Made by a program: the position numbers and the translations under genes
Assembly (NCBI GenBank): GCA_964573405.1
Contig: CAZNJK010000003.1
Coordinates: 3,826-67,825 of the forward strand
From: an uncultured Christensenella sp.
GTDB lineage: Bacteria; Bacillota; Clostridia; Christensenellales; UBA1242
Length of the DNA stretch: 64,000 nt
Direction: 5' to 3'
The notes under the pieces: model-generated
Databases searched by the model: none
The model's input: only the letters and a program-made list of their open reading frames with translations
What the model was told of the DNA's origin: nothing
Shown: piece by piece, positions 7,849 through 40,046 of the stretch
Numbering within the stretch: the stretch's first letter is position 1
Layout of the letters: every line of letters starts with the position of its first letter

Positions 7849-7876
7849 AAAAAAATCACCCATAATATGAGTGATT
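7849..7876 (-). terminator. Intrinsic terminator after rnpB
   Basis: Minus strand reads aatcac-(11 nt)-gtgatt followed by TTTTTTT, immediately 3' of the RNase P RNA. Confidence 0.6.
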
Positions 7877-7877
7877 T

Positions 7878-8210
7878 GGTCAGAATAGCCGTAAGCGGAG
7901 TTCTGTATTAAACGATTATCTATCTAGAACTAATGTCACCATTAGTTTCAAGCGGTGTAACGAAGGACTGCCGAGTCAGGTTATAACGCCCTTCTACCTT
8001 GCACCAAGTGGGGTTTACAGAATTCTATAGTTACCTATAAAATTGGTGTGCTCTTACCACGCCTTTCCACCCTTACCACATCGCTGTGGCGGTATATCTC
8101 TGTTGCACTTTCCTTAGAGTCGCCTCCACCAGCCGTTAGCTGGCACTATGCTCTGTGGTGCTCCGACTTTCCTCAAGAATTTCTTCTCGCAATCGTATGT
8201 CTATCTGACT
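7878..8210 (-). ncRNA. rnpB: RNase P RNA, type A
   Basis: Minus strand contains GAGGAAAGTCGGAGC, AGTGCCAGCTAACGGCTGG, AGTGCAACAGAGA, GGTAAGGGTGGAAAGGCGTGGTAAGAGCACACC, GTAAACCCCAC and ACAGAACTCCGCTTAC. A P1 pairing (GTCAGATAG with CTATTCTGAC) joins the two ends. Ends are approximate. Confidence 0.92.
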
Positions 8211-10609: not shown

Positions 10610-10695
10610 ACTTTTAAATTATAATAACACAAATTCAAAAAACAACAAAACAATTGATAACATTTTTATTATTTGTGTTAATTTAAAGTATTATG

Positions 10696-16625: not shown

Positions 16626-16742
16626 TTTTGTTATTTAATCAATAATTTTTTGTAAGTTAGTGACAATAAATAATGACTAATAATAAGTTTAATAATAAAA
16701 AGGGGCGTATTTTCTCACACCCCTTTAAATTTTAAGCAATCT

Positions 16743-17615
16743 TTAACTTCGTCTTATATCAACACAGTGTCTAACGGCTTTCTGGACTTCATTATCCCCT
16801 TGCACATTGTTAGTACCATCCACTTCGTCAGCACGCACTTCTTCCTCGGTGTCGCAATTTTTATGGCTGGTAAAACAATTTATGTCGTCACAATCGCAAT
16901 TCTCATCATTAATGTAGCCATTTTCAAAGTGTTCAGAACAATTAGGGCATTCAGATTCAATAATTTGAACTTTTTCAACATCTTGAAAATTATCCATTTT
17001 AATTGTTTCATTCGCACAATTCATTTCAACCTTTTCAATGTTGCTCAAACAATCTGGATTATTTCCAAATAAGGTCAAGATTTTCAAAACAACATCATTA
17101 ACAATCTGTTCTTTGATAGACGCGTCATCAATAGTAACACCACCAACATCTTTATTACAACCATCAATATTATCCATTAAATTGTTATCTTCAATAACAT
17201 CACAATATAAAACGTCTTGAAAATCATTCTCCGCACTTTTATTATTTTCAGTAAAAAATTCATTGACTTCAATACTGTCGATTTTTACATCCACTTCATC
17301 CGTAATTGATTCATCATCAATAATCTTTGCCACTTCAGTATCTTCAGCGATTGTAACCGATTTGTTATCTTCCGATATCGTAGTTTTATTGTCAACATTT
17401 TTTATTACATCTTTATTATCCATACTTTGTTTTGATGACTTTGAATCTTTTGTCACAATGCCAAGTACAACAAGCACACCGCATATCGCCATAATTACAT
17501 TTTCTATGGTCGAACTATCAATTGAAAAACCAAAAAGTTTTGCAACACTTTCCACCAAAATCACGATTGAACCACTAAGTGCAACCCAAAAAGCATAGGT
17601 TTTAATTTTTTTCAT
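16743..17615 (-). CDS. Holin-like N-terminal domain fused to a long acidic, Cys-rich C-terminal tail
   Basis: N-terminus MKKIKTYAFWVALSGSIVILVESVAKLFG...VIMAICGVLVVLGIV resembles small two-TM Firmicute phage holins. Residues ~60-290 are D/E/N-rich with CPNC and CDCDDINC...NCD motifs. GGAG RBS. Confidence 0.6.
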   Translation of the reverse strand: MKKIKTYAFWVALSGSIVILVESVAKLFGFSIDSSTIENVIMAICGVLVVLGIVTKDSKSSKQSMDNKDVIKNVDNKTTISEDNKSVTIAEDTEVAKIIDDESITDEVDVKIDSIEVNEFFTENNKSAENDFQDVLYCDVIEDNNLMDNIDGCNKDVGGVTIDDASIKEQIVNDVVLKILTLFGNNPDCLSNIEKVEMNCANETIKMDNFQDVEKVQIIESECPNCSEHFENGYINDENCDCDDINCFTSHKNCDTEEEVRADEVDGTNNVQGDNEVQKAVRHCVDIRRS

Positions 17616-17844
17616 TAGACTCCGACTTTTGAGTTGGCTTCATATTACCAATCTCTTCCTTTATGATTTCGACATCTTCTTTCACTTCGTTAATTATCTC
17701 AAGCGATTTGCCAAGACTGTCGATTGTTTGTTGATATTTTATTTCTCGCTCACGACTATCCTTAATTTGAAAGAATAATAGTAGCAAAAACAAGACTGCC
17801 CATATTCCATTGCTTAATGCTAAGTTAAGTATTTTCTCCCACAT
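17602..17844 (-). CDS. BhlA/UviB-family holin-like peptide
   Basis: 80 aa: LALSNGIWAVLFLLLLFFQIKDSREREIKYQQTIDSL, then a helical tail. Same layout as BhlA/UviB (one N-terminal TM, then K/E-rich coiled coil). Confidence 0.65.
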   Translation of the reverse strand: MWEKILNLALSNGIWAVLFLLLLFFQIKDSREREIKYQQTIDSLGKSLEIINEVKEDVEIIKEEIGNMKPTQKSESNEKN

Positions 17845-18430
17845 TTATATATCCTTTCAAGTCTTCACTCTCCGCCAAGACTTGTCCTTTTTTATCTTCT
17901 GGCAATGTTTCTAAAAACTGAGCAACAAGTTTTGACGCCCGCTCTCTTTTGTAATCACTCACTACGCTTTGGCTAAATCCCACAAAGTCAATTCCTTCGC
18001 TTAGCACATCGACCGAGTCGTACTGATCTCTAATCTCCCGCATTTGCTCTTGATACTTTGACTGGTCAGACGAAATAACATTTTCATACATTTTTTCTTT
18101 TTCTTTTAATGATTCCATCTCCACATTGATCTTGTCCAATTGTTCTTTCAATTCTACCGAACCCATAATATCAAAACGAGAATACTTTTCATTCAATATG
18201 CTATTAAGACTCTCCTTTTTAAAATTAAGCGAATCTCTCAACTTCTGAATGTCGGCAAGTTGAGTAGTTGCATTATCCACTTCTGCCGAATCATACACCT
18301 TCAAACCTGCTGAGTTCGTGCTAAGGATATTTATTTGACTTTTCAATTTTTCAAGCCCCTCTCTTATTTCATCATCTTCAATTATTTGTTTTGCCTTACA
18401 AGACAATTCTTCCGAAATTCTAAAATCCAT
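17825..18430 (-). CDS. Coiled-coil protein of the phage-like operon (201 aa)
   Basis: ORF 17825..18520; ATG at 18430 is preceded by GGAGGA. Strongly helical, charged sequence. Confidence 0.5.
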   Translation of the reverse strand: MDFRISEELSCKAKQIIEDDEIREGLEKLKSQINILSTNSAGLKVYDSAEVDNATTQLADIQKLRDSLNFKKESLNSILNEKYSRFDIMGSVELKEQLDKINVEMESLKEKEKMYENVISSDQSKYQEQMREIRDQYDSVDVLSEGIDFVGFSQSVVSDYKRERASKLVAQFLETLPEDKKGQVLAESEDLKGYINVGENT

Positions 18431-18488
18431 ATTTCCTCCATTCTTTAAAAATTCATTGTAATTTGTTCTTCTTATAATCATATTTAAA

Positions 18489-19619
18489 TTATAGTTTAAT
18501 TTGTTCAACTGAAAACCCACTCACCAAGTATAAAGTATTATCATAAATAAATGCATCATCAACATTAAGGTAATCACAAAAAGACATTCTGTAAGATAGC
18601 GTAAGCGAATTAAATTTTTCAACCCTTACGCCCTCTTCAAAAAGTTGTATTAGATAATTACCATTCTCTGTGTAGTAATTTGCAATATCTTTACACTTCG
18701 AATATTCTCTCGTACTCAACACATATCCTTCAGGATTCAAATACGACAAATACCAAATTTCATCCTTCGATTTTATCCAAAAATAATTAGTTGGGAAATC
18801 TGAACAAATTGACTTTACCTTGTCCACATTAATATAGTCTAGGTTCAATTTTTTTGTTAAAACCTCCGCCATATCACTATTAAAAGATTTCAAATACAAT
18901 CCCCCATTAATAACATATAAAACATTATAATAATGGTCTGCATCGTTAGATGTAAGTAAGCACATCGACTCTACACCATCCACATTAAAAGTTTTAGAAT
19001 TGCTATCATCTTTCAAAATATACATATTATCATAATACAACTTAACATTAGAAATTTTATCATTTTCTTCAATTTTAAAACCGACATTACAATCAAGGAA
19101 TTTGTCACTTTCATAATTATTTATGTTGCATATATTAGATGTTATTGACAATATGCCACCACTTTTTGACAATAAGTCATTTTTTATAAAGTTTATATTT
19201 TCATCACAAAAACTTAATTTTGATAATGTTTTTTCAAAACTTTCAATACATCCTTTCAATTTTAATTTAATTTTTATAGTAACATCATTCTCTGATTGGT
19301 ACACAATTTTAAGTACATTGTTTTCTTTTATGTAAGCATTTACCGATGTTGAGCAATATTGAGATACTATTTCTTCATATAGTTTTACATCATTTAAAAT
19401 CATACAAATATTTGCATTATTCGATACATTGATTTCCAATCCAAATTGGGCTATAGAATTTTCTTTTCCATTAAAAGATATTATTTTCTCTTCTTTAGTA
19501 GAAGAAATTTCATAACAAAAATTATATATCTTTTCATCTAATATTGTATTTGTATTTTCTTCATTGCTTCTTATAAGTTTTTGCGTTTTTGAAAATAAAT
19601 TATTTGATACATTACTCAT
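18489..19619 (-). CDS. Beta-rich structural protein of the phage-like operon (376 aa), unknown
   Basis: The ATG at 19619 overlaps the stop of the upstream gene (tATGAGTAA). N/Y/I-rich beta-strand-like composition. Confidence 0.5.
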   Translation of the reverse strand: MSNVSNNLFSKTQKLIRSNEENTNTILDEKIYNFCYEISSTKEEKIISFNGKENSIAQFGLEINVSNNANICMILNDVKLYEEIVSQYCSTSVNAYIKENNVLKIVYQSENDVTIKIKLKLKGCIESFEKTLSKLSFCDENINFIKNDLLSKSGGILSITSNICNINNYESDKFLDCNVGFKIEENDKISNVKLYYDNMYILKDDSNSKTFNVDGVESMCLLTSNDADHYYNVLYVINGGLYLKSFNSDMAEVLTKKLNLDYINVDKVKSICSDFPTNYFWIKSKDEIWYLSYLNPEGYVLSTREYSKCKDIANYYTENGNYLIQLFEEGVRVEKFNSLTLSYRMSFCDYLNVDDAFIYDNTLYLVSGFSVEQIKL

Positions 19620-21111
19620 AGACGCCAACCAAAAATTTAAAAGTTTCTATAGATGGATTTTCCGTCACACTAACTAGCCTAACAGAAAATTCTTGTGCTT
19701 GGATATTTGTTATAATCTTTTGTTCTTGCTCACTACCCGCAACATTAAATTCATAATTTCCATCGTTTGTAAAAATCGTAACTACTACATCTTCGCTAGA
19801 TTTTATATGAAAATTTCTGATGATTTTTTTGTTATATGGCTTAGAGAGATCAAACTTATTTGACTCCCAAATTTTCTTTGCGTATTCGTTTGAATTATAT
19901 TTCCCGGTTTTATCAATCACTCGCAATTTTTGACTAAGACTCCCCGTTAAAGCAAGCACCCTTTCAGAACAACCATCTTGGAATGGTAGTATTTTTCGAA
20001 TGCACAAATCGGGGCAAAAGTTAACTTCTTCAGAATATATATCATAAACAATCAAACAATTATTTTTGCCACTATCATAATTATCAACAACCCCGTCAGA
20101 ATAATTAAGTTTTGTAGCAAAATAATATTTGTTATCACTAAAACACGCCACACTGTTGTGTTTTCTTTTTCCATCGAAAAAATTCAAAAACTTAATATCA
20201 ACTTTATTTACTGTATTGCCATTAAAAATATATATTCCTTTCTCATCTGCAAAAATTATATTGTCGCCACCAATAACGATTGAATTCTCAATAATCTTTG
20301 AATTGCCCCTATACACATCTTCAAGTACAAGGTGTTTTTGACTAGAATATGTGACAATTCTATATATTCCATATTCACACACCACATAAAGATAATCATT
20401 ATAACTTACAAGTTTCAAAATTTTACCCGCCCTTGCTGAAACATTTATGGCTTGCATATTTGGAACACTGGCCGATAAATTAAGCGGATTTAAGTCATCA
20501 CCAAACAAGATTTTACTTCTGCCATCTTCGTCCAATACCACAAACATTTTGTTGTTGTAGTTACAAATATCATAGATATAAAAATCACTTGAAAATTCGT
20601 TAAGAAAATCAGTAGCGCCTTTGCATATATAATTAATTATCGTGCTATTATGTTTTGTAGTAACAATAAGATAATTCTTATCTTGATAAGAACAAGATAG
20701 CAATCTAAAAGAACAACCTTCCGTCAATGAACGAAATTCGTGATGCTGAATATCTCCGCTATCCAAAACAATAAAGCATATTTTATAATCACTGGTAACA
20801 AAAATCAGTTGTTTTTGTGGTGGACTATCGGTTGATTTTGTGCCAACGAAATATGTAAATGATAGTACCGTACCTAGCGACGCAACTTCGGGAACAATTG
20901 AATAATCTCCTTCACTAGTTAAGTACAATTTCAAATCATCTTCCCCATACGACTTCTTTAACATTCCATTTTCCACGCTGAAATTTGCGCACAATTTTGG
21001 AACATATGAATTCTTTTCATTGCTGGTATTGAATTGGCTCGAAAATTTCGAAAAATCTATTACTTTATAATCAATTTTTGGAATGACGTTTGAAGTATTT
21101 TTGTAAAACAT
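19612..21111 (-). CDS. Beta-propeller-like structural protein of the phage-like operon (499 aa); candidate tail/receptor-binding component
   Basis: The ATG at 21111 overlaps the upstream stop (TGATG) and follows GAAGGTGG. Recurrent ...YLYVV.EYGIYR..., ...IIFADEKGIYIFNG..., ...KYYFAT... blades. Confidence 0.5.
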   Translation of the reverse strand: MFYKNTSNVIPKIDYKVIDFSKFSSQFNTSNEKNSYVPKLCANFSVENGMLKKSYGEDDLKLYLTSEGDYSIVPEVASLGTVLSFTYFVGTKSTDSPPQKQLIFVTSDYKICFIVLDSGDIQHHEFRSLTEGCSFRLLSCSYQDKNYLIVTTKHNSTIINYICKGATDFLNEFSSDFYIYDICNYNNKMFVVLDEDGRSKILFGDDLNPLNLSASVPNMQAINVSARAGKILKLVSYNDYLYVVCEYGIYRIVTYSSQKHLVLEDVYRGNSKIIENSIVIGGDNIIFADEKGIYIFNGNTVNKVDIKFLNFFDGKRKHNSVACFSDNKYYFATKLNYSDGVVDNYDSGKNNCLIVYDIYSEEVNFCPDLCIRKILPFQDGCSERVLALTGSLSQKLRVIDKTGKYNSNEYAKKIWESNKFDLSKPYNKKIIRNFHIKSSEDVVVTIFTNDGNYEFNVAGSEQEQKIITNIQAQEFSVRLVSVTENPSIETFKFLVGVYE

Positions 21112-21668
21112 CAATACCACCTTCTTCTCTTAATTTTTGTGTTTCTTTGCGGTCTTAAACAACTTTGCAACTCTGATTTGAACTTTTCTTCCCACATTTT
21201 CGCTTCATCAAACACGCCTTTTGCATATAAGTATTCAGCCGTAACTCCATACACGAAAATTCGTTCATTAATCTTGGTTGGATAATCGCTAATTGCATCA
21301 TCATATGTTAAATCATCTGGGAAATATGTATACTTTATGACAATATCTCCCGCCTTTGTGACAATTCCGTCGCTTGTAAGTTGAAAATCAATACTAGTGC
21401 CAGTATTGGTCTTAATACTCACAATGTCAAAAATTGTTTTTGATGTGACACTAGAATATGGTATAACGCCCCTTATATTTCGCACTTTTGTCACTGCATA
21501 CAACTTTACATAATTTGTTGCGATGTTGCAATTTGTTAAATTAACGCAATCCACCAATAATTTCTTTTCATTTTCTTGTTGGGTAATTAACTCACCATCT
21601 ATTGCACCCGCCAATTCGTAATTATGGGTTAAATTCAACACCTTTTTTATTATATTTTTAACTAACAT
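21111..21668 (-). CDS. Phage-like operon protein (185 aa); position suggests a head completion/connector role
   Basis: ATG at 21668 is preceded by AAAGGAG. Third gene after the capsid-like gene. No family recognised. Confidence 0.45.
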   Translation of the reverse strand: MLVKNIIKKVLNLTHNYELAGAIDGELITQQENEKKLLVDCVNLTNCNIATNYVKLYAVTKVRNIRGVIPYSSVTSKTIFDIVSIKTNTGTSIDFQLTSDGIVTKAGDIVIKYTYFPDDLTYDDAISDYPTKINERIFVYGVTAEYLYAKGVFDEAKMWEEKFKSELQSCLRPQRNTKIKRRRWY

Positions 21669-21679
21669 CGTTTCTCCTT

Positions 21680-22051
21680 TTATAACCAATTTGACTTAAA
21701 TGTACAATTTAAGTTTTCATTATCTGATTTTGAATATTTTAAAATTTCTCTAATTTTGTAGTCGCTTATTTCTTTCGCTTTTTCAAATGCTCTTCTTTCA
21801 TTCCTTTCGTTTTCAACATCCAAATTTTTTATGATTTTGTCATAATTTTTCACATCCGTTGAGCACAACAACTCGATTGTTCGTGAATCCAATCGCTCAT
21901 ATGGAATTGTCAAACAATATGGATTTTTGTATTTTGAATTATGAATTTCAAACTTTTTAGAATTCAAATTAAACAAAACAAAATAATTTTCGTCAATTTC
22001 CTTAATTCTTTTGCAAATATCAAAAACATCGCTCTCAATTTTTATTTTCAT
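21680..22051 (-). CDS. Phage-like operon protein (123 aa), unknown
   Basis: Intact ORF downstream of the post-capsid hairpin, with a purine-rich RBS (aaaggaaaagg). Confidence 0.45.
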   Translation of the reverse strand: MKIKIESDVFDICKRIKEIDENYFVLFNLNSKKFEIHNSKYKNPYCLTIPYERLDSRTIELLCSTDVKNYDKIIKNLDVENERNERRAFEKAKEISDYKIREILKYSKSDNENLNCTFKSNWL

Positions 22052-22073
22052 TGCCTTTTCCTTTTTAAAATAA

Positions 22074-22095
22074 GGAGATGGAAAAACCCATCTCC
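22074..22095 (-). terminator. Hairpin (partial terminator/attenuator) immediately after the capsid-like gene
   Basis: Minus strand GGAGATGG-gtttt(t)-CCATCTCC followed by TTATTTT, located between the stop at 22103 and the next ATG at 22051. Confidence 0.5.
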
Positions 22096-22102
22096 ATCAT
22101 CA

Positions 22103-23284
22103 CTAAACCGTAATCCCTCTTAGGCGAGATTGTCCATTTGGTCGGCTACAAATTAAGTCAGCATATTTTACTAATGTTGCCGTATATACTGGATAATCGG
22201 CCTTTTGACTCAATACATTTCCGCTATCGTCGGTCATCCATTCCCAATCGCACATTTGGTGCAATGTAAATGTGTCGGTATCTAGCAAATACATATCCTT
22301 CTCATTTACGAATCTATCACTCACCATAGGAATGCCGTAGAAATCAAGTGCCTTAAATCCGTTACCCAAATCAATTGTCTGAATATTTCTCTTATCTGCA
22401 ATTAAAAGGCTTTGATATTTCCTTCTTACCGCCGAAGAGCAAGCAATATAGTTAATCTTAACATTACTACTTTCTTCCGCTTGGTCGATTTTCTCTAAAA
22501 TCTTAACGTCGGTCAAATCGCCCACATTTTCATATCCATTACCTTTCATAAACTTATAGTCTAATTTTTTAAGACCATAAAGGTAATTAATATCACCTAC
22601 AAATAGCGCATCAATACCTGTAATTTCGTTTTTATAACTTCCTTGGTTAACCAAGTAATATCCGCCATCTTCGGCATCTGTTAGAGTTACAGCTCTAGAA
22701 AGGGTAACGGTATTTTCTACTCTATCTACCGCTACGATTTCCAAAAATTCGCCACCGCTAACCGCACTATATGTTGTGCTATCATACACATCTACAATCA
22801 TACCTTCAGCCACGCGATTGCAATTGTCAACTGTCACAGTTTTGCCGTCACCACTTACATCTGAGATTTCGCAAATAAGGCCTCTGCCATCACCATACAA
22901 CATCCTACTAAGATTGAATGCGCTCGCTCTAATAAGCCCTTCCATTTCGTCGTTAAGCAAATTTACAAATGCCCCCGCACTGTTTTGGCTCGCACGCACA
23001 GCCTTGTCACTTATCTCAATTCTGCCGTATAAGTTCTTTAGATCGGTTGTGAATGTTACATACGAGTTATTGGATGTTCTTGGAAGTTCTCCTGTTTCGC
23101 TTGTCGCAGTAATGCCACCATTTACACCATACGGAGCAAGCACCTTTATTTCTTTGCCATACACTCCTTGAGTGGTCTTCTTGATTTTTGCAAATAATGG
23201 ATTGGTTGCAACATTAAGCAAGTTGTCAAGCACATCTAAATACACCGACTTCAACGCATTATTTGCAGTTGTTAAATTTATCAT
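22103..23284 (-). CDS. Major capsid-like protein
   Basis: 393 aa, directly after portal- and scaffold-like genes. N-terminal ...KIKKTTQGVYGKEIKV... and ...RMLYGDGRGLI..., and the C-terminal ...YTATLVKYADLICSRPNGQSRLRGI, resemble phage coat proteins as I recall them. Confidence 0.7.
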   Translation of the reverse strand: MINLTTANNALKSVYLDVLDNLLNVATNPLFAKIKKTTQGVYGKEIKVLAPYGVNGGITATSETGELPRTSNNSYVTFTTDLKNLYGRIEISDKAVRASQNSAGAFVNLLNDEMEGLIRASAFNLSRMLYGDGRGLICEISDVSGDGKTVTVDNCNRVAEGMIVDVYDSTTYSAVSGGEFLEIVAVDRVENTVTLSRAVTLTDAEDGGYYLVNQGSYKNEITGIDALFVGDINYLYGLKKLDYKFMKGNGYENVGDLTDVKILEKIDQAEESSNVKINYIACSSAVRRKYQSLLIADKRNIQTIDLGNGFKALDFYGIPMVSDRFVNEKDMYLLDTDTFTLHQMCDWEWMTDDSGNVLSQKADYPVYTATLVKYADLICSRPNGQSRLRGITV

Positions 23285-23293
23285 AATTTTCTC

Positions 23294-23920
23294 CTATTTA
23301 AAAATTTTCTTTGCCATCTCCCCCGCTTCAAATACCGTAACAGGCTTCTTATATGAAGACGCTATAGTACTGCCACCTTTTGAAGTCATTAGATTTGGCG
23401 AAAGGCTTACTTTATTTAAATAATCCTTAACAATCTTTTCCTTATCGCTATCACTTAGCAAATTAAGTGCAAATTCCTTGTTGTTAAGCCGATTATTTAA
23501 CATTTCGTTTTCCTTTTCTAAGACCTTCCCGTATGCAATTTCTAGGGAATTTTGGGCAGTGCTCAAAACTTTATCGCTAGAAATCATTTCGGAAATCTCT
23601 CGTGAAAACTCTTTTGCTTTAGGATGATTCATTAAAAATTCATCAACCTTTTCTTGCCAGTCACCACTTTCGTATGGCGGTACACCATGTGCATTGTCGC
23701 CGTCCTTATTTTTCATAAGTTCGCTTAGCGCCTGACATTTTTTGGTAAATTCAGACTGAAGACTATCGTAAGCCTTTATAAGTTCGTCCACAGTCTTGAA
23801 TTTGCCATTTATAGGAGAGCCGTCTTGATTGCCATTACTTAATTTATCAAAACCCACGTCTGTGGCGGAAGTCGTATAATCAGTAGACGGTTGTTCTCCA
23901 TTACTAAATTTTTCTAACAT
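23294..23920 (-). CDS. Capsid scaffolding-like protein
   Basis: 208 aa, helical and acidic. GKFKTVDELIKAYDSLQSEFTKK motif is typical of Firmicute phage scaffolds. Located between the portal-like and capsid-like genes. Confidence 0.6.
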   Translation of the reverse strand: MLEKFSNGEQPSTDYTTSATDVGFDKLSNGNQDGSPINGKFKTVDELIKAYDSLQSEFTKKCQALSELMKNKDGDNAHGVPPYESGDWQEKVDEFLMNHPKAKEFSREISEMISSDKVLSTAQNSLEIAYGKVLEKENEMLNNRLNNKEFALNLLSDSDKEKIVKDYLNKVSLSPNLMTSKGGSTIASSYKKPVTVFEAGEMAKKIFK

Positions 23921-23922
23921 TT

Positions 23923-25794
23923 TTATTCTCCTAAATCTTTAAGTATTTCTTTATGCTTTTTAATATGTTCTATCATTATTTGTTTTTGTGCTTCTGTTCC
24001 CATCTTCTCAAAGTCATTGCCAAGAATAAATGCCGTGTGTTGAGTGATGTGAATGTTGTGGTCATCTATATCGGACGGGTCACTAACCGATGCCGATTTT
24101 AGCAAATTATAGTTCTCTCGTTCCGCTTGTTTTACTTGCAATGTTTGTAAATCTTGGCTATTGTTCCACGTGCCAAATCCAAACTGCTCCAAAACCTTTT
24201 GACGGGTAGAATTACTCATAACCCCGTTCTCATCATTAAATAGCCCCGCATTCAAGATCTCAAGTATCATACTACGCTTTTGGGCGAGAGTCTGACTAAC
24301 TTCATTCTCCGTTTCAAATACAACATCTTCGCTATTTATTTGGGAATTGTTCCAATAAAACATTTCTATTTCGCCATTCTCTCCCACCAGCCTTGATGTA
24401 TGTGGCAACACTGCAAATTGTTTGTAAAGTCTTAAAATGTGTCTTCCTACTTCCTTTATTGCTCGCTTAATTTCGTCTTCACTAGAAGTGATTCTGGACT
24501 CATCTTGTTCTATAAGTAGTTGCAGTGCCACTCCACTTATATTTCCAGTATTTATGCTAGAAGATGTAAGCAAATCGGACACTCCGCTGATGTTAATGAA
24601 CTCATCAAGAAGCATTTCTTCTTCCTTTTCAAAACTCGTAGGAATCGTGTCGCCGGTTAACATTTTTGGGGCGGAACTGCCTTGTCTATACACCAAAATT
24701 TTACCTGGGGACAAGCCTTCTTCTTCCAAATTCTCAATATCCACCGAGCCGTCTTCCACCGTCAAAACGCCTAAAGAAAGCCTATTTAAAAACTCATGCT
24801 TGCGATTTTTGACTGCATTAAACGATCTTTGGACAGGGATAAGCCTTTCAATAATCGACATCCCCCAAAAACTATTTGGAATGCTAATTGAACATTGTTT
24901 TACAAAAGGGAAACCGCGTTCCAAATTCACTGTATTTATGTAAGGAAGTTCGCCTATGTATATGAGTTTGTTTCCCGCAACAATTGTCAACTTGCCATTG
25001 GGGTTGTCCACACTTGGGCATTCATACTTTTCAATGACAACCGCTTGATTTGGCTTGTTGTATTTGAATACGCTTTTGGAAGTGGCAGAATATCCCAATC
25101 CTCCAATATTTGGTACATTGCAAATATCCATTGTTTCAAGTTCGCACCCGTCAAGGTCAACGCCATACATATCCTTTATAGCGTCCACCGAATATGCTTT
25201 TGCGTGGATTATGCTACGCATATCGGATATATTTTCAACACTGGAATTGTCCGGATATATTTCGAATGGCGACACCACGCTTATGTCGACTTCACCTTCA
25301 TACATATTCTGTCCGACTTCATTTTTGCCTATAACTCGTCCTTTTAGATTGTTCCAGCCAATTTTGTAAAATGCAGTGCCACATATCTCGCTCCAAAGCG
25401 TTGCGTCATTAATAATTTTGCTAAGATTTAAGTCATAACTAACGCATTTCAGTAGGTTTCGACTCACTTTTGCACAACCTATGTCATTTGGGTCATCAGA
25501 AAACGGCACGACTGTAAGGATGGGTCTAATTTTATTAAGTTTTGAAATTCTCAAATCAACAATCGGTGCGATGTGATTGAACACTTCTTTTTCTTGCCAA
25601 AAATATTGCTTCATATCATCAACAATCTCATTAATTCCGTTGATAAAGCAGTATTGATTGCCCACCAAAAAGTTGATGTTGAGTTGCCAAGTTGTTTCCA
25701 TTTTTTTTCGTTCGTATTGTCGATTTTTAAAATCAGCAATCACATCTTCGACTATTTTTTTCTCAATTTCTTCGGTTATTTTATCTTTTTCCAT
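23923..25794 (-). CDS. Portal-like protein
   Basis: 623 aa, positioned right after the terminase genes and before the scaffold/capsid-like genes. Size and order are typical. Assignment is positional. Confidence 0.65.
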   Translation of the reverse strand: MEKDKITEEIEKKIVEDVIADFKNRQYERKKMETTWQLNINFLVGNQYCFINGINEIVDDMKQYFWQEKEVFNHIAPIVDLRISKLNKIRPILTVVPFSDDPNDIGCAKVSRNLLKCVSYDLNLSKIINDATLWSEICGTAFYKIGWNNLKGRVIGKNEVGQNMYEGEVDISVVSPFEIYPDNSSVENISDMRSIIHAKAYSVDAIKDMYGVDLDGCELETMDICNVPNIGGLGYSATSKSVFKYNKPNQAVVIEKYECPSVDNPNGKLTIVAGNKLIYIGELPYINTVNLERGFPFVKQCSISIPNSFWGMSIIERLIPVQRSFNAVKNRKHEFLNRLSLGVLTVEDGSVDIENLEEEGLSPGKILVYRQGSSAPKMLTGDTIPTSFEKEEEMLLDEFINISGVSDLLTSSSINTGNISGVALQLLIEQDESRITSSEDEIKRAIKEVGRHILRLYKQFAVLPHTSRLVGENGEIEMFYWNNSQINSEDVVFETENEVSQTLAQKRSMILEILNAGLFNDENGVMSNSTRQKVLEQFGFGTWNNSQDLQTLQVKQAERENYNLLKSASVSDPSDIDDHNIHITQHTAFILGNDFEKMGTEAQKQIMIEHIKKHKEILKDLGE

Positions 25795-25805
25795 TTGTAC
25801 TCCTT

Positions 25806-25997
25806 TTAAAATTTATTTAATATGTTGCGGGGACTTTTAGGGGCTATATTGCACGATATCTCGTAGTTAATTTGCGACAAACAATCCTTACACGAATGAA
25901 TGCGGACTGTATTTTTTAGTTTTTTTAGCACTATGTAATACTCGCTCCTAGCACCACAAAAATTACACTTATTTTTCCTTTCTTCCTTTTGAATCAT
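25806..25997 (-). CDS. Small zinc-ribbon protein (63 aa)
   Basis: ATG at 25997 after AGGAGA. CNFCG ... CKDC pairs. Confidence 0.4.
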   Translation of the reverse strand: MIQKEERKNKCNFCGARSEYYIVLKKLKNTVRIHSCKDCLSQINYEISCNIAPKSPRNILNKF

Positions 25998-26289
25998 CTT
26001 TACATTTCTCCTGTGCTTCATTTAGCATTGTTAAAAGTTTTTCTCGCTCTTTTTCAAGTTCTTTTAATTCATATCCTTTATACATATCTTCGTCGTTTAA
26101 ATTCTGTTTTTCAATAATCATCTCTATTGCTTTCAATTCTGGAGGATAATATTTCGAATTTAATTTCCTTTTGACTAGGGTGAGTTCGTCATTCACCATG
26201 GAATACTCTTCCACGACTTCGTTTTGTGAAAATCCTATTGCTCTATTAAACAATGCCTCGTCTATTTTTTTGAAATCTTCTTTCTTCAT
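25969..26289 (-). CDS. Small-terminase-like protein (106 aa), located downstream of TerL
   Basis: NRAIGFSQNEVVEEY...KYYPPELKAIEMI resembles the RA.GY..EE....K..PPD..A..F.L pattern of one Firmicute phage small-terminase family. The ATG overlaps the TerL stop (ATGA). Confidence 0.45.
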   Translation of the reverse strand: MKKEDFKKIDEALFNRAIGFSQNEVVEEYSMVNDELTLVKRKLNSKYYPPELKAIEMIIEKQNLNDEDMYKGYELKELEKEREKLLTMLNEAQEKCKDDSKGRKEK

Positions 26290-27734
26290 CTGTACACACC
26301 ATTATGTCTTGAATTCATAAGTTTTTTGTACATCTTTTCTCTATCTTTTTGCACGATTGTCTTAGGCTGGTCCTTTATGGTGTTTTCGGGGCGTGACATT
26401 ATGTAATATCTTAATTCATCTAGACAATGGTCATCTTTCTTTAGTGGTGCGTCGCCATTGCCCCAAAAATAACTTTTAATCTCACTTATCAAATTTACAC
26501 AATTTTTAAAGATAAATAATCGTGCTTGGCCATTGGCATTTTTTAAATAACTCTTTACTCGATTTATGCCCGTAAATAGGTCTTTATTTACTTTTGGATT
26601 AACGAGAATATTGTAGTCATAAAATAGTTCGGTCACACTCTTTTCTCCCGACAAAGTCTTCTGATTTGCCGCGCTATCTATAAGTGCCTCAATGCAACCG
26701 TTGTAAGAGCGTTTCCAATTAAGCCTATCGGAAATTTGTTTTATCTTATTTGCGTGATACTCCACAGACTTTCCCGCTTCAAAATGTTCCGCCACCACAT
26801 ACACATTGTTGTCGAAATCGACCGCATACCAATGTGCCGAAAGCGGATTATTGAGCCCTGGGTCAATGCTAATGTTGTCTTGCCACTCTTTCGGAATGTC
26901 GAATGGCTCTATTACATTCACATTCTCGTCAAACTCACTATACACCATCCCACCATTCCCCACGAAATTGCCGTAGCATCGACTTTCCAGTTCGTCCGCA
27001 CTCAAACTCCCCATAAACGACTCTATTTCTTTTTCATTTAAAAAGGGGTTATCGTGCCACGATATGTGCTCGTGCCATATTTCGGGATCATTATTTTCAT
27101 TGAGATATATTAGGTTATACACCCACGACAATCCCTTAAGCGGGGTCATCGTCGCAAATATATCACCGCATTTATCCAGCACCCGCATTTTGCACTCAAG
27201 ATAGATGTCTAGCGGTGGCTCTTCATCGAACCACACAAAATCTAGGCTAGTACCTTGGAATTTTTCTCGGCCTTGGTCACAACTTTTGAATCCTATCTTA
27301 CTCAATCCGCCAAATACATTTTTTATAGTAATAAAGTCAATCACCCCCATATCCATTGCACTTTTCTTACCGCTAAGCATTACAATGTCTACAATCCAAT
27401 CCTTATTAAGATAATGCAATATTTTGTTTTGTGCGACATCTCTTTGCACTTGCGTGCTCAGTGACACCACCCAACACTCCACATTCGGCTTGTTCTCCCT
27501 ATATGGGTGTATCCCCCTCGCCAACCAGATGGTTTCAACCGCCCCGCACTCGGTTTTGCCACTTCTATTTCCCCCAAACACCCACCTATTTTTCTTTGTA
27601 CATTTATGGAACGTAAGTTGTTTTAAATGAACCTTATCGCCCGTATTGTACTCAAATAGCCGATTATTGTTCTTTTTCCTAGCAATCTCGTTTTGCACAA
27701 GCATTAATCGTTTTTTGATTTCGCTAACATTCAT
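26286..27734 (-). CDS. Terminase large subunit
   Basis: Walker A FGGNRSGKTECG, Walker B LDFVWFDEEPP. C-terminal RNase-H-like nuclease motifs (IDPGLNNP..., DSAANQ, DHCLDELRY). AAAGGAG RBS. Confidence 0.88.
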   Translation of the reverse strand: MNVSEIKKRLMLVQNEIARKKNNNRLFEYNTGDKVHLKQLTFHKCTKKNRWVFGGNRSGKTECGAVETIWLARGIHPYRENKPNVECWVVSLSTQVQRDVAQNKILHYLNKDWIVDIVMLSGKKSAMDMGVIDFITIKNVFGGLSKIGFKSCDQGREKFQGTSLDFVWFDEEPPLDIYLECKMRVLDKCGDIFATMTPLKGLSWVYNLIYLNENNDPEIWHEHISWHDNPFLNEKEIESFMGSLSADELESRCYGNFVGNGGMVYSEFDENVNVIEPFDIPKEWQDNISIDPGLNNPLSAHWYAVDFDNNVYVVAEHFEAGKSVEYHANKIKQISDRLNWKRSYNGCIEALIDSAANQKTLSGEKSVTELFYDYNILVNPKVNKDLFTGINRVKSYLKNANGQARLFIFKNCVNLISEIKSYFWGNGDAPLKKDDHCLDELRYYIMSRPENTIKDQPKTIVQKDREKMYKKLMNSRHNGVYR

Positions 27735-27828
27735 TTTTTCTCCTTTTATATATATTTAGATATTTTTCGACGTTTTTTAAAGATGTATAAATTTCCACTT
27801 TCGCAATGAATCAGTATATAATGAAAAT

Positions 27829-28557
27829 ATGATTAAGATTTTGTTAATTTTTGTGGTAATATTTAGCAGTTTTGAATTCACATATTGCGATAACAATTAT
27901 GCTCGGATTACAAATAGCCACACATATTTATATAGAACCGCATCAAAAGACAGTGATGTAAAAAACATAATATGCGTTATGGAAAACACATATTATGTTG
28001 AAATTTTATTAATCTATGATGAGGACTTTTATAAAGTAAATTATAATGGCGTAAGCGGATATGTGCTTAGGCAAGATGTGAAAAGAGTAAAAGATGAGCC
28101 TAGCCACCCATATCCCGATAATGTAGAGATGGTCACAATCAACAACAACTCATACTTAAGGTCATCTCCCCAAAAAGCAAATAACAACCTTACAATAGTT
28201 CCGTCAAACTGCTCAAAACTACATTATATAGGCAAAACATATGGCGAACAAGTTGATGATTTTAGGCAAAATTTGTGGTACTATGTGGAATATCAAGGGG
28301 TATATGGATACATCTATAGCGAATACATTAGGTCTATTTCAAGCATATATCCCAATGTAGAAGAATTAAGTTATGTAAGCGATAACGACTTTGACGACAT
28401 CATAAACCCGCTATCAAATTCAACCTGCATACTAATTATTGTAGGGATGTCAATTCCTATGCTAATCGTAATGTATATGATTTACAAAAAACCAAAACAC
28501 CGAAAAAGCAAATTTAAGGAAAGGGTTATTGTAAAAGAATATGACGAAAAACTTTAG
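27829..28557 (+). CDS. Secreted/anchored protein: signal peptide, two SH3b-like domains, C-terminal TM and basic tail
   Basis: YKVNYNGVSGYVLRQDVK and WYYVEYQGVYGYIYSEYI are SH3_3-type strands. TM is CILIIVGMSIPMLIVMYMIY, followed by KKPKHRKSK. No RBS; a TATAAT lies 6 nt before the ATG, so possibly leaderless. Confidence 0.6.
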   Translation: MIKILLIFVVIFSSFEFTYCDNNYARITNSHTYLYRTASKDSDVKNIICVMENTYYVEILLIYDEDFYKVNYNGVSGYVLRQDVKRVKDEPSHPYPDNVEMVTINNNSYLRSSPQKANNNLTIVPSNCSKLHYIGKTYGEQVDDFRQNLWYYVEYQGVYGYIYSEYIRSISSIYPNVEELSYVSDNDFDDIINPLSNSTCILIIVGMSIPMLIVMYMIYKKPKHRKSKFKERVIVKEYDEKL

Positions 28558-29093
28558 CCCGCATTAAACTCGTTTAGTACCGACTTGAAAAATCTTTGCT
28601 TGTTGTACTGGCTAATTCTAAATTCTTTACTATCTTCCAATTGCTGGTTGTGATTGTATAGATTTTTAAGCCAATATTCGCCACTGAACATCATTTCAAG
28701 TTTTTCCGCATTGAAGCCTTGCAATAACAAATTTTTTGCAAAACACTGCAACGCTTCATTTTTCTTCCTAAAAAATGTTCTAATACTGATGTGCATAAGG
28801 TCCGCAATGTCTTCGTTTTTTGCATTATCAATATAACTCAATGCTAAGATTTGCCTTTGATGAAGGGGCAACATATTTAGCGTGTCGTCTACAATAACTT
28901 TCAAATTAATCAAATTAACTTTTCTCTCAGTTAATTGCATTATCCTATTTGCACAATCATAGCAAGTATTGTATCGACCATTGCTATAAAACGCTGAATT
29001 GATGCTCTTTTTATATACTAAGTCATCAATCGAATTAGATAACGCCTCCAAATATTTATATACAGACAATATTGTTTTACTCCAAGTTTTCAT
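28554..29093 (-). CDS. ArpU/RinA-like (sigma region-4-like) late-gene activator candidate
   Basis: 179 aa. LPLHQRQILALSYIDNAKNEDIADLMHISIRTFFRKKNEAL is a region-4-type HTH. Size and position (upstream of the terminase) match phage late activators. GGGAGG RBS. Confidence 0.55.
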   Translation of the reverse strand: MKTWSKTILSVYKYLEALSNSIDDLVYKKSINSAFYSNGRYNTCYDCANRIMQLTERKVNLINLKVIVDDTLNMLPLHQRQILALSYIDNAKNEDIADLMHISIRTFFRKKNEALQCFAKNLLLQGFNAEKLEMMFSGEYWLKNLYNHNQQLEDSKEFRISQYNKQRFFKSVLNEFNAG

Positions 29094-29119
29094 TCTTCCT
29101 CCCGAATTTGATTTTCTAT

Positions 29120-29149
29120 ATTATAATGTACTATTTTTCCAATTGTCAA
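29120..29149 (-). promoter_or_regulatory. Consensus sigma-A-type promoter of the activator-like gene
   Basis: Minus strand TTGACA (29149-29144) - 18 nt - TATAAT (29125-29120). Confidence 0.6.
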
Positions 29150-29222
29150 AGGCTTGTGTCATATTTTTGTAAAAATTGTTTATTTTTGTACAAATTTGTC
29201 AAATTTTGTCAATTTTTGTCAA
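29143..29222. repeat. Phased TTGTCAA (TTGACAA on minus) direct repeats
   Basis: TTGTCAA at 29143, 29196, 29206 and 29216 (the last three exactly 10 bp apart). TTTGTAAAA/TTTGTACAAA variants lie between them. Confidence 0.6.
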
Positions 29223-29238
29223 AAACACATCTTTTTCT

Positions 29239-29252
29239 AGAACATTTGTTCG
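29239..29252. promoter_or_regulatory. LexA-type box AGAACATTTGTTCG (complement CGAACAAATGTTCT)
   Basis: Matches CGAAC-N4-GTTC. Located in the divergent intergenic region between the activator-like gene and the 876-aa surface protein gene. Confidence 0.55.
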
Positions 29253-29529
29253 ATTATACCCCCTATTTAATGACAACAGTATGTCACAATTTAAAAAAAA
29301 ATTAAAAAAATTAAAAAATCACTAAAACATATCATTGAGAAGCCTTTAAATGGAATATTTAAAAATTTACATTCAAACAATATAACTTTTTTAACTAAAA
29401 ATTAAATTTGATTGTTATTTATTTGTTTTTTTATTTTTAATTTTGATATAATATATTATATTATGTAAATACATATTACAAATAGCCCATTAGCTACATA
29501 AAAAATTTTAAAAGGTGTATTAGTTACTT

Positions 29530-40039: not shown

Positions 40040-40046
40040 ACAATTA

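Follow-up and report, generated by a model that had tools for sequence, protein, structure and literature searches.

The closest known system to the locus described here is FpGTA of Faecalibacterium prausnitzii (PMC12946183, Nat Commun 2026), the two being compared by gene order and annotation, not by sequence. FpGTA is a chromosomal operon of 10–11 kb without integrase or replication genes, and its podovirus-type particles of 40 nm contain about 8.5–9 kb of host DNA (PMC12946183). Its genes run in the order terminase subunits, portal, small protein, major capsid protein (MCP), two small proteins, nozzle (P22 gp10-like; PDB 8eap), one more protein and a coiled-coil ‘TolA-like’ protein (PMC12946183); the fibre, RBP, holin and endolysin genes lie 125 kb away in another operon. 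In Christensenellaceae MAGs, the same study also detected packaging like that of a gene transfer agent (GTA; 4.1 and 6.3 kb reads), for which the genes were not found (PMC12946183). Murine virus-like-particle (VLP) fractions are rich in Borkfalkiaceae DNA. Further comparison is offered by the RcGTA-type clusters of Alphaproteobacteria: like the present locus, they are vertically inherited head/packaging/tail clusters under purifying selection, with no replication or integration genes, and with host regulation and release by lysis, both predicted for our locus. However, they are siphovirus-derived, contain a tape measure, are controlled by CtrA and quorum sensing and belong to a different host phylum, and the searches run detected no sequence relationship between RcGTA and our operon.

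The operon occupies about 11 kb of the minus strand of the window, by which we mean the whole 64 000-nucleotide stretch of DNA from an uncultured Christensenella sp. that was analysed (Table 1). As originally predicted, it consists of 13 intact and closely packed ORFs at matching coordinates. Taking the longest-ORF starts, neighbouring ORFs overlap by 4–53 nt or sit 2–51 nt apart; with the RBS-supported starts (Met9 of Zn71, Met8 of p192, Met4 of p502 and Met31 of p231) every junction is an overlap of 1–29 nt or a gap no longer than 58 nt. Eleven of the 13 ORFs have a GGAG-type RBS in front of them, and the start codons of p106 and p379 fall within the preceding gene. The single strong terminator foreseen at the operon end was found, and the hairpin directly after the capsid gene may act as a partial terminator setting the head:tail protein ratio; SU10 also has a terminator after its head genes. 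The original prediction regarded this architecture as unlike any known one, which no longer holds: FpGTA is nearly collinear with it, likewise has a nozzle, also comes from a gut Clostridia host and makes a podovirus-type particle, as is predicted for our operon. The two systems nevertheless differ. The FpGTA capsid is annotated as N4-gp56 family, whereas all capsids tested here belong to NF033394 and none matches TIGR04387. In FpGTA a Prp-like gene separates the portal and MCP genes, a position at which our operon encodes a 208-aa scaffold-like protein without a Prp match. The FpGTA holin lies in the second operon, whereas here the holins end the main operon and no endolysin was seen. Finally, no regulator is described for FpGTA (PMC12946183), whereas the present module includes both a LexA box and an ArpU-like activator.

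Table 1. Features of the operon and its surroundings (window coordinates; dN/dS measured against the close relative L088, which has 98% MCP identity).
Feature	Position	Strand	Basis or remark	dN/dS
876-aa cell-surface protein	29530–32160	+	Signal peptide, NHL beta-propeller, SH3b domains, C-terminal TM anchor	
Conserved palindrome TGACAtacTGtTGTCA	29271–29286	−	12 nt upstream of TATAAT (29253–29258)	
LexA (Cheo-type) box CGAACAAATGTTCT	29239–29252	−	Abuts TATAAT at 29253–29258	
TTGACA / TTTGTACAAAAAT repeat array	29150–29235		Before the consensus promoter	
Sigma-70 promoter TTGACA-18-TATAAT	29120–29149	−	12/12 consensus; directly upstream of activator gene	
ArpU/RinA-like sigma-70 region-4 protein, 179 aa	28554–29093	−	Sigma70_r4_2 E 1.5e-8; DUF1492 E 3e-5	
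Membrane-anchored extracellular SH3b protein, 242 aa	27829–28557	+	Between activator and TerL; SH3_3 E 3e-11; signal peptide, C-terminal TM	
Operon, 5'→3': TerL, short TerS, Zn-ribbon, portal, scaffold-like, capsid, two small ORFs, nozzle, two fast-evolving distal proteins, BhlA, holin	27734→16743	−		
Large terminase TerL	26286–27734	−	Terminase_6N/6C; phrog_2 E 1e-31	0.016
Small-terminase-like p106, 106 aa	25969–26289	−	Family-member matches to TerS phrogs	
Zinc-ribbon protein Zn71 (CxxC...CxxC)	25806–26021	−	Weak Zn-ribbon matches; RBS at Met9, likely start 25997	0.02
Portal, P22/SU10 type	23923–25794	−	PF16510 P22_portal E 6.5e-18; PF23899 SU10_portal; phrog_156 E 1e-35	0.029
Scaffold-like protein, 208 aa	23294–23920	−	Position only: flanked by portal and MCP in every locus	
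MCP	22103–23284	−	phrog_14242 E 4e-47; NF033394 230 bits	0.011
Hairpin and T-run	22074–22095	−	Directly 3' of capsid gene	
Conserved protein, 123 aa	21680–22051	−	Kept in 60 loci	
p192, 192 aa	21111–21689	−	Adjoins nozzle gene, upstream, in 74 loci; likely start 21668	
Podovirus tail nozzle p502, 502 aa (P22 gp10/SU10 gp17/T7 gp12 class)	19612–21120	−	Predicted structure and profile; beta-propeller core	0.09
Beta-rich distal protein p379, 379 aa	18489–19628	−	Fast-evolving	0.18
Coiled-coil distal protein p231, 231 aa	17825–18520	−	Likely start 18430	
BhlA-family holin-like peptide	17602–17844	−	PF10960 E 3e-16	0.03
Holin	16743–17615	−	PF04531; Phage_holin_1 TM domain plus lineage-specific acidic/Cys-rich C-terminal tail (~220 aa)	0.35
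Intrinsic terminator	16699–16726	−	11-bp stem; closes operon	
Polytopic membrane protein, 327 aa	15642–16625	−	Between holin and RNase J; no family match	

The identities first given to TerL, the portal, the capsid protein, BhlA and the holin are borne out by Pfam, phrog and NF033394 matches, and p106 can be retained as TerS-like, since 28 of the 33 members of its family match the TerS family phrog_309 and 14 match phrog_23444, another TerS family. TerL matches the PBSX-family model weakly (41 bits, for a cut-off of 105). Family searches with the scaffold-like protein gave no match. The MCP has a variable central insertion (approximately residues 131–260), and the capsid surface region evolves quickly; more than 5000 homologues or protein clusters were found, many on contigs of 100–390 kb, with 649 clusters at 50% identity (E ≤ 1e-30). 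The locus was first described as containing head, packaging and holin genes only. The lack of a tape measure stands (no sheath, tube or tape measure was found among the operon ORFs), but the lack of a tail does not: the 502-aa ORF, noted earlier as beta-rich, is by its modelled structure a podovirus nozzle, and the block encodes a short tail. The top Foldseek matches of its AF2 model (pLDDT 75) are all podophage nozzle chains (E 1e-15 to 1e-8), its matches in BFVD are P22 Gp10-like, and its profile matches SU10 gp17 at E 0.006 (hhalign E 2e-5).

The adaptor, fibre and needle candidates are proposed from gene position. p192 is a candidate head-to-tail adaptor by its position and size, neither sequence nor profile searches having found a match; searches with the 123-aa protein returned none either. 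By position, p379 is a possible fibre or receptor-binding protein and p231 a possible needle, plug or fibre. A PDB search with p379 gave no match, and its positional orthologues are only 16–29% identical where MCPs are 51–65% identical; the matches of the p231 family alignment are limited to generic coiled coils, and its positional orthologue in locus L087 bears DUF7934. The virion modules of P22/SU10/T7-class phages share with this block the portal family (PF16510/PF23899), the podovirus capsid NF033394 and the nozzle fold, whereas counterparts of their adaptor and needle are not recognisable here. These phages have genomes of 40–77 kb with replication, ejection-protein and lysis modules, unlike this block, and SU10 gp17 has 1005 aa with Ig-like nozzle domains, which the 502-aa nozzle does not have. 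At the end of the operon, the C-terminal tail of the holin is 39% identical to that of L088 and is missing in orthologues of 93–107 aa. No endolysin domain was detected within the operon or beside it, which leaves a gap in the annotated lysis route.

Upstream, the ArpU/RinA-like activator, the consensus promoter and the LexA-type box were all present as foreseen. The activator, which is presumed to switch on the late operon, matches TIGR01637 (phage_arpU) at E 3e-6, under the model cut-off; its gene is kept in at least 16 loci with a dN/dS of about 0.08–0.11. Of 19 related loci, 17 have a box matching GAAC-N4-GTTC with at most two mismatches upstream of the activator gene, the background rate being 0.12 per 470 nt; none was found upstream of TerL or TerS in activator-less loci, used as control regions. 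Most type I loci share the arrangement GACA-N6-TGTC, 12 nt, TATAAT. Both the LexA box and the ArpU-like activator are conserved parts of the module, and the motif suggests that LexA binds there.

The flanks consist of core genes, as originally stated: RNase J, an O-methyltransferase and a U32 peptidase on one side; the deacetylase, SSB, GyrA/GyrB, MurG, Ddl, a Mur ligase and Obg on the other. The annotated flanks lack an integrase, a repressor and a replication module; no integrase or replication gene was found within 15 kb, no primase or AlpA-type gene in the block or flanks, and neither tRNA nor att-like flanking repeats in the window. Among species-representative genomes (MAGs of Christensenellales-type Clostridia), at least 589 relatives were counted, many of them at the RNase J/gyrase-side locus. 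The rnj-proximal position, between RNase J and deacetylase–SSB, holds the same module in relatives with 51–98% MCP identity, and the module is retained there down to 46–50% RNase J identity; in L087 it sits among different flanking genes. Close and distant homologues show the same gene set of approximately 11–15 kb with housekeeping flanks, often at the same locus, and are not embedded in 30–45 kb prophages. Gene content does vary, some related loci having no adjacent TerL and others no holin and activator, so the function may not be uniform. Divergence of TerL and the portal follows that of the adjacent RNase J (Mantel r of 0.86 and 0.90, respectively; 0 of 2000 permutations reach the observed values), whereas that of the MCP does not (r = 0.14), which could reflect saturation, the hypervariable insertion or exchange between lineages. 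Near-full-length ORFs are found in 90–100% of loci (MCP 87/87, portal 79/84, TerL 44/49, nozzle 64/65) and pseudogenes are rare. Against L088, dN/dS is 0.011–0.22 for twelve ORFs (dS 0.4–1.2), with 0.16–0.18 for the distal proteins; the holin has the highest value of the 13.

The shared locus, the co-divergence with RNase J and the low dN/dS together argue for a domesticated, vertically inherited system. In keeping with the original prediction, our preferred reading, to which we give a probability of roughly 0.6, is a podovirus-derived particle system of the GTA type that has become fixed in the chromosome and is passed on vertically within a large clade of Christensenellales-type Clostridia, across hundreds of gut species. 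Rather than a dead prophage, the locus is most likely a source of GTA-like particles. Upon DNA damage, LexA would leave the box abutting the TATAAT upstream of the sigma-region-4 activator, which would then switch on the single 11-kb late operon. A procapsid would be built from the portal, scaffold and capsid proteins and loaded by TerL and the short TerS by headful packaging; as the locus is unable to excise or replicate, the available DNA would be the host chromosome, and the particles would be expected to contain random host DNA. The adaptor candidate, the nozzle and the two fast-evolving distal proteins would seal the portal as a short tail. BhlA and the holin would breach the membrane, leading to cell lysis, release of the particles and presumably DNA delivery to recipients.

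Similar genes could serve other ends. PBSX of Bacillus subtilis is a defective, SOS-inducible and chromosomally fixed element that packages host DNA, and, judged against established knowledge and PMC12946183, the regulatory logic proposed here is the same: DNA damage, a sigma-like positive factor and one late operon ending in holin-type lysis genes, with SOS control suggested in our case by a motif. A PBSX-like particle, packaging host DNA incidentally and selected for killing competitors or for altruistic lysis that frees DNA or public goods, and not for DNA delivery, would also fit the bacteriocin-type holin BhlA and the fast evolution of the distal tail proteins, which surface recognition would predict. 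We nevertheless consider it unlikely. The PBSX particle is of the myovirus type, and its sheath, tube and tape measure, the lethal parts of tailocin-type particles, are absent here; PBSX is controlled via an Xre repressor, whereas here the LexA box lies directly at the activator gene. Moreover, TerL, TerS and the portal are among the most constrained proteins (dN/dS 0.016–0.03), an argument for selection on DNA packaging itself. It is more doubtful still that the locus is an immobilised satellite or defence element that uses its capsids and terminase to intercept infecting phages or to compete with them, whether by abortive lysis upon infection or by interference in the manner of capsid-forming phage-inducible chromosomal islands (cf-PICIs). 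Like cf-PICIs, it is a compact island with its own TerS, TerL, portal, scaffold and capsid protein, its SOS or late-activator control could answer phage infection, and its capsid surface changes fast; but cf-PICIs are mobile, borrow helper tails and possess integrase, AlpA and primase/replication genes. This element has none of these genes, encodes its own nozzle, occupies a fixed position from species to species and diverges together with its host.

That the block is what a recently deleted prophage left behind, decaying and without function, seems very improbable. A complete phage would indeed need integrase, replication, repressor and endolysin genes, which are missing here, but the idea is contradicted by the intactness of 13/13 ORFs at dN/dS 0.01–0.35 (dS about 0.4–1.2), by retention at the locus to such low RNase J identities, by the conserved regulatory DNA and by the number of carrier genomes. 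We give even less credence to an autonomous, very small temperate podovirus, mobile by unknown means, despite the 67 related contigs classed as viral in IMG/VR and the different flanks of L087. Those contigs are mostly fragments of 4–17 kb with the same gene set, some containing the host RNase J or SSB; replication genes, integration genes and att repeats are all absent, and the module co-diverges with the host. In addition, portal and MCP searches of 50 697 phage genomes gave best matches of 22–28% identity, and isolated phages yielded no relative above 30%.

The genes bordering the operon complete the picture. The 327-aa membrane protein occupies the same place in 18 loci and is replaced by another gene in L087; its membership of the module is uncertain. 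The 242-aa SH3b protein, found at the same place in 25 loci, L087 included, belongs to the module. The 876-aa protein, encoded divergently from the activator, is co-inherited with the module; its family profile matches NHL propellers in the PDB (E 4e-16), and members show NHL and SH3_3 matches. The activator, SH3 and NHL proteins have dN/dS values of 0.08–0.23. The position of the 876-aa protein is kept in L001, L003, L005, L007, L013, L019, L026, L091 and L092, and also in L087 despite its different flanks.

Listing and translation of the ORFs confirmed 13 consecutive ORFs on the minus strand, as originally predicted, with a GGAG-type ribosome-binding site 5′ of 11 of them after four starts had been moved to RBS-supported ATGs. 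The locus covers 11 kb, or 15.4 kb when its regulators are included. Family searches assign six of the 13 ORFs, and the earlier calls of TerL, portal, capsid, BhlA and holin all find matches in Pfam, PHROG or NCBIfam (see the table). The TerS-like call also stands: p106, the 106-residue product of the ORF 3′ of TerL, gives only a weak match when searched alone, and 28 of the 33 aligned members of its family match phrog_309 (small terminase), with 14 matching phrog_23444. Three neighbouring genes belong with the operon and complete what we call the module: an ArpU-like activator, an SH3b protein and an NHL/SH3b protein.

Features of the element and its surroundings (window positions)
Feature	Position	Strand	Description
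Operon	27734-16743	-	13 ORFs, TerL through holin
TerL		-	Terminase_6N/6C; phrog_2, E 1e-31
Portal		-	PF16510 P22_portal, E 6.5e-18; PF23899 SU10_portal; phrog_156, E 1e-35
MCP (major capsid protein)	22103-23284	-	phrog_14242, E 4e-47; NCBIfam NF033394 'capsid_maj_Podo', 230 bits (cut-off 80)
Hairpin and T-run	22095-22074		Directly 3′ of the capsid gene
BhlA		-	PF10960, E 3e-16
Holin		-	Last operon ORF, 290 aa; N-terminal Phage_holin_1 domain
Holin extension	16743-17400	-	C-terminal two-thirds of the holin ORF
Terminator	16726-16699		11-bp stem; closes the operon
SH3b protein	27829-28557	+	242 aa; signal peptide, SH3b domains, C-terminal anchor
ArpU-like protein	28554-29093	-	179 aa; sigma-70 region 4/DUF1492
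NHL/SH3b protein	29530-32160	+	876 aa, divergent; signal peptide, NHL beta-propeller, SH3b, C-terminal anchor
Sigma promoter	29149-29120		12/12 consensus
Repeat array	29150-29235	-	Between LexA-type box and consensus promoter
LexA-type box	29252-29239		CGAACAAATGTTCT; abuts TATAAT
LexA-type box	4318-4331		CGAACAAATGTTTG
rarA/mgsA-like gene	4410-5705		
LexA-type box	40000-40013		CGAACAAATGTTTG
HTH_11 ORF	40011-40361		116 aa
SSB-family protein	32287-32949	-	OB-fold
RNase P RNA	7876-8208	-	Bacterial class A, 246 bits
Germination protease (Gpr)	62149-63045	+	Peptidase_A25

The holin ORF fuses its transmembrane domain to an acidic, Asn/Asp/Cys-rich extension of about 220 residues. This extension is 39% identical in L088, the closest relative (L numbers denote related loci), where the ORF has 312 residues; the holin orthologues in L001, L003, L087 and L091 have 93-107 residues and no C-terminal extension. 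Nowhere in the module did we find a peptidoglycan hydrolase domain. An endolysin concealed in the large neighbour p876 was ruled out, this protein being an NHL/SH3 surface protein without a hydrolase domain.

The distal part of the operon had been singled out for profile searches and structure prediction, and these identified its nozzle. The 502-residue product (p502) has no family match of its own, but a profile built from 38 orthologues in related loci matches chain G of PDB entry 7z47 (E 0.006). This chain, entered as the 1005-residue 'surface protein' SU10_017, corresponds to gp17, the nozzle of phage SU10; direct alignment of the profile with SU10 gp17 by hhalign gives E 2e-5 across 123 columns. 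The AlphaFold2 model of p502 (pLDDT 75, pTM 0.69) was computed from an alignment of seven sequences, and a second homologue search with the 38-sequence profile gave the same seven proteins. When the model was compared with the PDB using Foldseek, the 13 best matches (E 1e-15 to 4e-9) were all podovirus tail or nozzle entries, from Pa223, VP1, SU10, PhiM1, P22 (gp10; 8eap), Pan3, GP4, A4, T7 (gp12) and Kp9; nine podophage tail structures are matched at E 1e-15 to 1e-8, and a library of viral models returned P22 Gp10-like proteins. A nozzle with a beta-propeller core, encoded 3′ of the portal and of the adaptor position, is what a podovirus tail calls for, and p502 corresponds to it. Because p502 resembles podovirus nozzles both in its predicted structure and by profile, we conclude that a short tail of the podovirus type is encoded here. 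That the 13 ORFs include no tape measure, as correctly noticed at the outset, had been taken as a sign of a missing tail; with a podovirus-type tail this is expected and is no deficiency.

The other distal products (p192, p379 and p231, again named by length) gave no specific match. By position, p192, encoded just upstream of the nozzle gene, is the obvious candidate for the adaptor, and p379 and the coiled-coil protein p231, downstream of the nozzle, are candidate fibre and needle components. Profiles of p192, p123, p231 and p379 found nothing specific among PDB sequences, PHROGs and Pfam, p231 matching only generic coiled coils; p192 aligned by hhalign with the SU10 adaptor gp11 was negative, and its single-sequence model has a pLDDT of 32.

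The activator gene is preceded, 26 nt upstream of its start codon, by a sigma promoter that agrees with the consensus at every position. The LexA-type box CGAACAAATGTTCT, already seen in the original prediction, lies 90 nt further upstream and abuts a TATAAT, with a palindrome, TGACAtacTGtTGTCA, 12 nt before the latter. Of 19 loci, 17 have a GAAC-N4-GTTC box with at most two mismatches in front of the activator gene, and in the remaining two the upstream DNA is incomplete; activator identities among these loci go down to 25%. The background per 470 nt is 0.013 for at most one mismatch and 0.12 for at most two. Most of these loci also have the palindrome and the TATAAT. In loci without an activator, the box is found upstream of TerL or TerS at the background rate only (3/23 and 1/15). 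This conservation is strong comparative evidence for a predicted SOS control of the activator. The protein itself passes the Pfam cut-offs for Sigma70_r4_2 and DUF1492 but falls below those of TIGR01637 (27.4 bits, cut-off 43.1) and TIGR01636 (17.4 bits, cut-off 31.9); it is predicted to work like ArpU/RinA activators, with a family membership that is only marginal.

Between the LexA box and the consensus promoter there is a repeat array (TTGACA(A)AA / TTTGTACAAAAAT / TTTTACAAAAATATGxCACAA), which recurs at the same place in L001, L003, L005, L007, L013, L019, L025, L026, L091 and L092, where the activators share only 30-70% identity; the array may serve autoregulation or bind a second regulator. 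A shared late-promoter motif upstream of TerL was rejected, only loosely similar TTTTGTA / TGxCA elements being visible by eye and none in the window. Two more LexA-type boxes, of identical sequence (CGAACAAATGTTTG), lie about 80 nt upstream of a rarA/mgsA-like gene and at the start of an HTH_11 ORF, bringing the number with at most one mismatch in the 64 kb to three, against 0.84 expected.

All identifiable genes within 15 kb on either side of the block are housekeeping genes: RNase J, an O-methyltransferase, a U32 peptidase and a sigma factor on one flank, and a polysaccharide deacetylase, an SSB-like protein, GyrA/GyrB, MurG, Ddl, a Mur ligase and Obg on the other. Over the same distance, integrase, repressor pair and replication genes are all absent, in agreement with the original prediction; no tRNA or att-like repeat that could be an integration target was found, and an Rfam search gave nothing in or near the block. 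The SSB-family protein has an N-terminal extension of about 105 residues without annotation. Many loci have it, together with the deacetylase, next to the element, but in L087 this protein lies outside the module.

The element is widespread. Its capsid homologues form more than 5000 clusters at 90% identity, many from contigs of 100-390 kb, and 649 clusters at 50% identity (E<=1e-30). A scan of one genome per species gave at least 589 related loci, on records named Christensenellaceae, Christensenella, Candidatus Borkfalkia, Candidatus Fimimonas or as Clostridia MAGs. The gene maps of the fetched loci fall into three layouts. The first, that of the window, runs from the NHL protein, activator and SH3 protein to TerL through holin; it usually sits between the deacetylase-SSB pair on one side and a membrane protein followed by RNase J, methyltransferase and U32 on the other, L087 being the sole case with other flanking genes. 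The second starts with TerS, ends with holins, always has the same ABC transporter alongside and has no adjacent TerL, which may be encoded elsewhere, the system then being split across loci. The third is shorter, lacks holin and activator, and lies directly 3′ of gyrB-gyrA. This location, together with the distance of only 5 kb between the window's element and gyrA, suggests an old gyrase-proximal position. In the second clade (L010, L021, L033, L048, L061, L086 and similar loci) the activator, SH3 and NHL genes are likewise not adjacent, and the right flank of L086 is rpsT-gpr. Loci of the third layout (L045, L084, L074, L085, L009) have eight genes: TerL, TerS, portal, a 145-residue protein, MCP, a 186-residue protein, a nozzle-like protein of about 410 residues and a 298-residue protein. 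Two loci carry some 2.5-3.6 kb of extra DNA between TerL and TerS (L031 3336-6948; L079 4534-7010).

Among 50,697 genomes of isolated phages, portal and capsid find their best matches in Arthrobacter and Microbacterium phages, at 22-28% identity; TerL reaches 29% at best, and the p502 nozzle has no match. IMG/VR has 67 related 'viral' contigs, mostly pieces of 4-17 kb with the same genes. Fragments of the chromosomal element (contigs L093-L155) are thus listed there as uncultivated viral genomes, some of them with host RNase J or SSB genes, and probably cause false viral calls in a systematic way. A 52-kb IMG/VR contig, L156, carries at 9567-10846 a distant capsid relative (36%), seemingly split into ORFs of 141 and 285 residues, among many small phage-like ORFs; it may represent a real phage lineage related to the ancestor of the element.

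Comparison of genomes had been proposed as a check, and it found the RNase J-proximal locus shared among relatives and under constraint. Relative to L088 (98% capsid identity), all 13 ORFs are intact, and dN/dS (NG86, at dS 0.4-1.2) is 0.011 for MCP, 0.016 for TerL, 0.021 for the Zn-ribbon protein, 0.029 for the portal, 0.03 for BhlA, 0.09 for the nozzle, 0.11-0.22 for the small and distal proteins and 0.35 for the holin with its long variable tail. More distant pairs are saturated (dS >1 or undefined), so that their values, 0.08-0.11 for the activator, 0.11-0.12 for the SH3 protein and 0.22-0.23 for the NHL protein, are to be read only as <0.5. In 15 genomes with RNase J beside the element, pairwise identities of TerL and portal follow those of RNase J (Mantel r 0.86 and 0.90; 0 of 2000 permutations reach the observed values). 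For MCP r is 0.14: capsid identity falls fast to about 50% and then stays flat. Vertical inheritance and purifying selection, by which GTAs are recognized, are both present, with TerL and portal tracking the host and MCP not doing so. The nozzle, p379, p231 and the NHL protein diverge much faster than TerL. In the capsid, the central 130 residues have a mean identity of 31-43%, compared with 60-71% at the ends. In this hypervariable centre (residues ~131-260), an insertion adds about 80 residues to the 311 positions of the NF033394 model. The capsid diverges out of step with TerL, portal and host RNase J, as between L001 and L005 (RNase J 94%, TerL 90%, MCP 68%).

We put the probability that the element is a domesticated, vertically inherited and selectively maintained phage-derived particle system at about 90%; the original interpretation as a GTA-like or PBSX-like system came through the tests of synteny, dN/dS and ORF intactness. 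Decay of an ordinary prophage would predict pseudogenes or integrase-bearing homologues. ORFs are instead near full length in 90-100% of loci (MCP 87/87, portal 79/84, TerL 44/49, nozzle 64/65, p192 77/78), and no fetched locus has an integrase or replication genes. A satellite of the cf-PICI kind would bring an integrase, an AlpA-type regulator, a primase or replication gene and att sites, none of which was found here. What remains is a chromosomal cluster of phage-like structural and packaging genes without replication, integration or excision functions, as in GTAs. We consider it somewhat probable that the element packages host DNA in the manner of a GTA and that SOS-triggered lysis releases it, given its gene content, its lack of means for self-replication, the analogy with PBSX and with the Faecalibacterium prausnitzii agent FpGTA, and indirect virome data. 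In such a scheme, relief at the LexA box would switch on the ArpU-like activator of the compact 15-kb module, and SOS-triggered lysis would free particles holding host DNA. The main rival is a PBSX-like role without transfer. Gene delivery to recipients is less certain than packaging. The 13 ORFs contain no match to the contractile sheath, tail tube or tape measure of a PBSX-like myophage, the predicted tail being of the nozzle type.

Gene transfer agents are well characterized in few lineages only. The first podovirus-like agent, FpGTA, was reported in 2024-2026 (preprint 2024; Nat Commun 2026; PMC12946183). Its 10.5-kb operon encodes TerS, TerL, portal, a Prp-like protein, MCP, hypothetical proteins, a nozzle annotated against PDB entry 8eap and an abundant 'TolA-like' protein; a second operon encodes fibre, RBP, holin and endolysin; no regulator is named, and the 40 nm particles contain ~8.5-9 kb of host DNA (portal, MCP and nozzle accessions RCH50851, RCH50849.1 and RCH50846; PMC12946183). 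Judged by gene lists, both systems share the order terminase, portal, X, MCP, X, X, nozzle, X, coiled-coil protein, almost identical from the portal onwards. Within the 64 kb of the window, the holins lie in the main operon rather than in a second one. The FpGTA capsid is annotated as N4-gp56, whereas the MCP of the window and seven diverse relatives match NF033394 only, with no match to TIGR04387 at E<=0.01. No direct link to FpGTA was obtained in this way, and because the capsid families differ by annotation we do not file the element as an FpGTA orthologue. Among the cluster members looked up, none bore a Faecalibacterium name, the labels being 'Clostridia bacterium' only.

The original remark that the architecture did not match the familiar ones has to be divided accordingly: the kind of system is known, and the gene cluster, by virtue of its lineage, its layout in one locus with a predicted LexA-controlled activator and its two co-inherited surface proteins, seems not to have been described. 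Literature searches found no paper describing it in Christensenellales. The FpGTA study also reports GTA-like packaging in Christensenellaceae MAGs (HGM11616 sp900761075 and QANA01 sp019420265), with modal reads of ~4.1 (4.07) and 6.3 kb that it assigns to no gene cluster (PMC12946183). The locus, conserved in hundreds of gut-lineage species, is a concrete and testable candidate for this activity. GTA particles carry more or less random host DNA in pieces that cannot contain their entire cluster; for the present locus, of 11 or 15.4 kb, these read lengths are an indirect indication. In murine VLP fractions, Borkfalkiaceae make up ~13% of bacterial DNA (2026 preprint). More speculatively, and with rather less than even confidence, we envisage an SOS-controlled podovirus-type GTA across the whole clade (at least 589 species-representative genomes), either domesticated independently of FpGTA or separated from it very long ago, which would be the source of the Christensenellaceae and Borkfalkiaceae GTA-like packaged DNA in human and mouse gut VLP fractions, the NHL/SH3 proteins serving as receptor, immunity or recipient-capability factors. 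If active, the element would give its carriers a major route for exchanging chromosomal DNA and would repeatedly bring bacterial DNA into virome data; its loci being already deposited in IMG/VR as viral contigs, it would also be a source of false viral calls.

Finally, the window also contains a bacterial class A RNase P RNA gene, and it encodes the germination protease Gpr; the host is therefore probably a spore-former.
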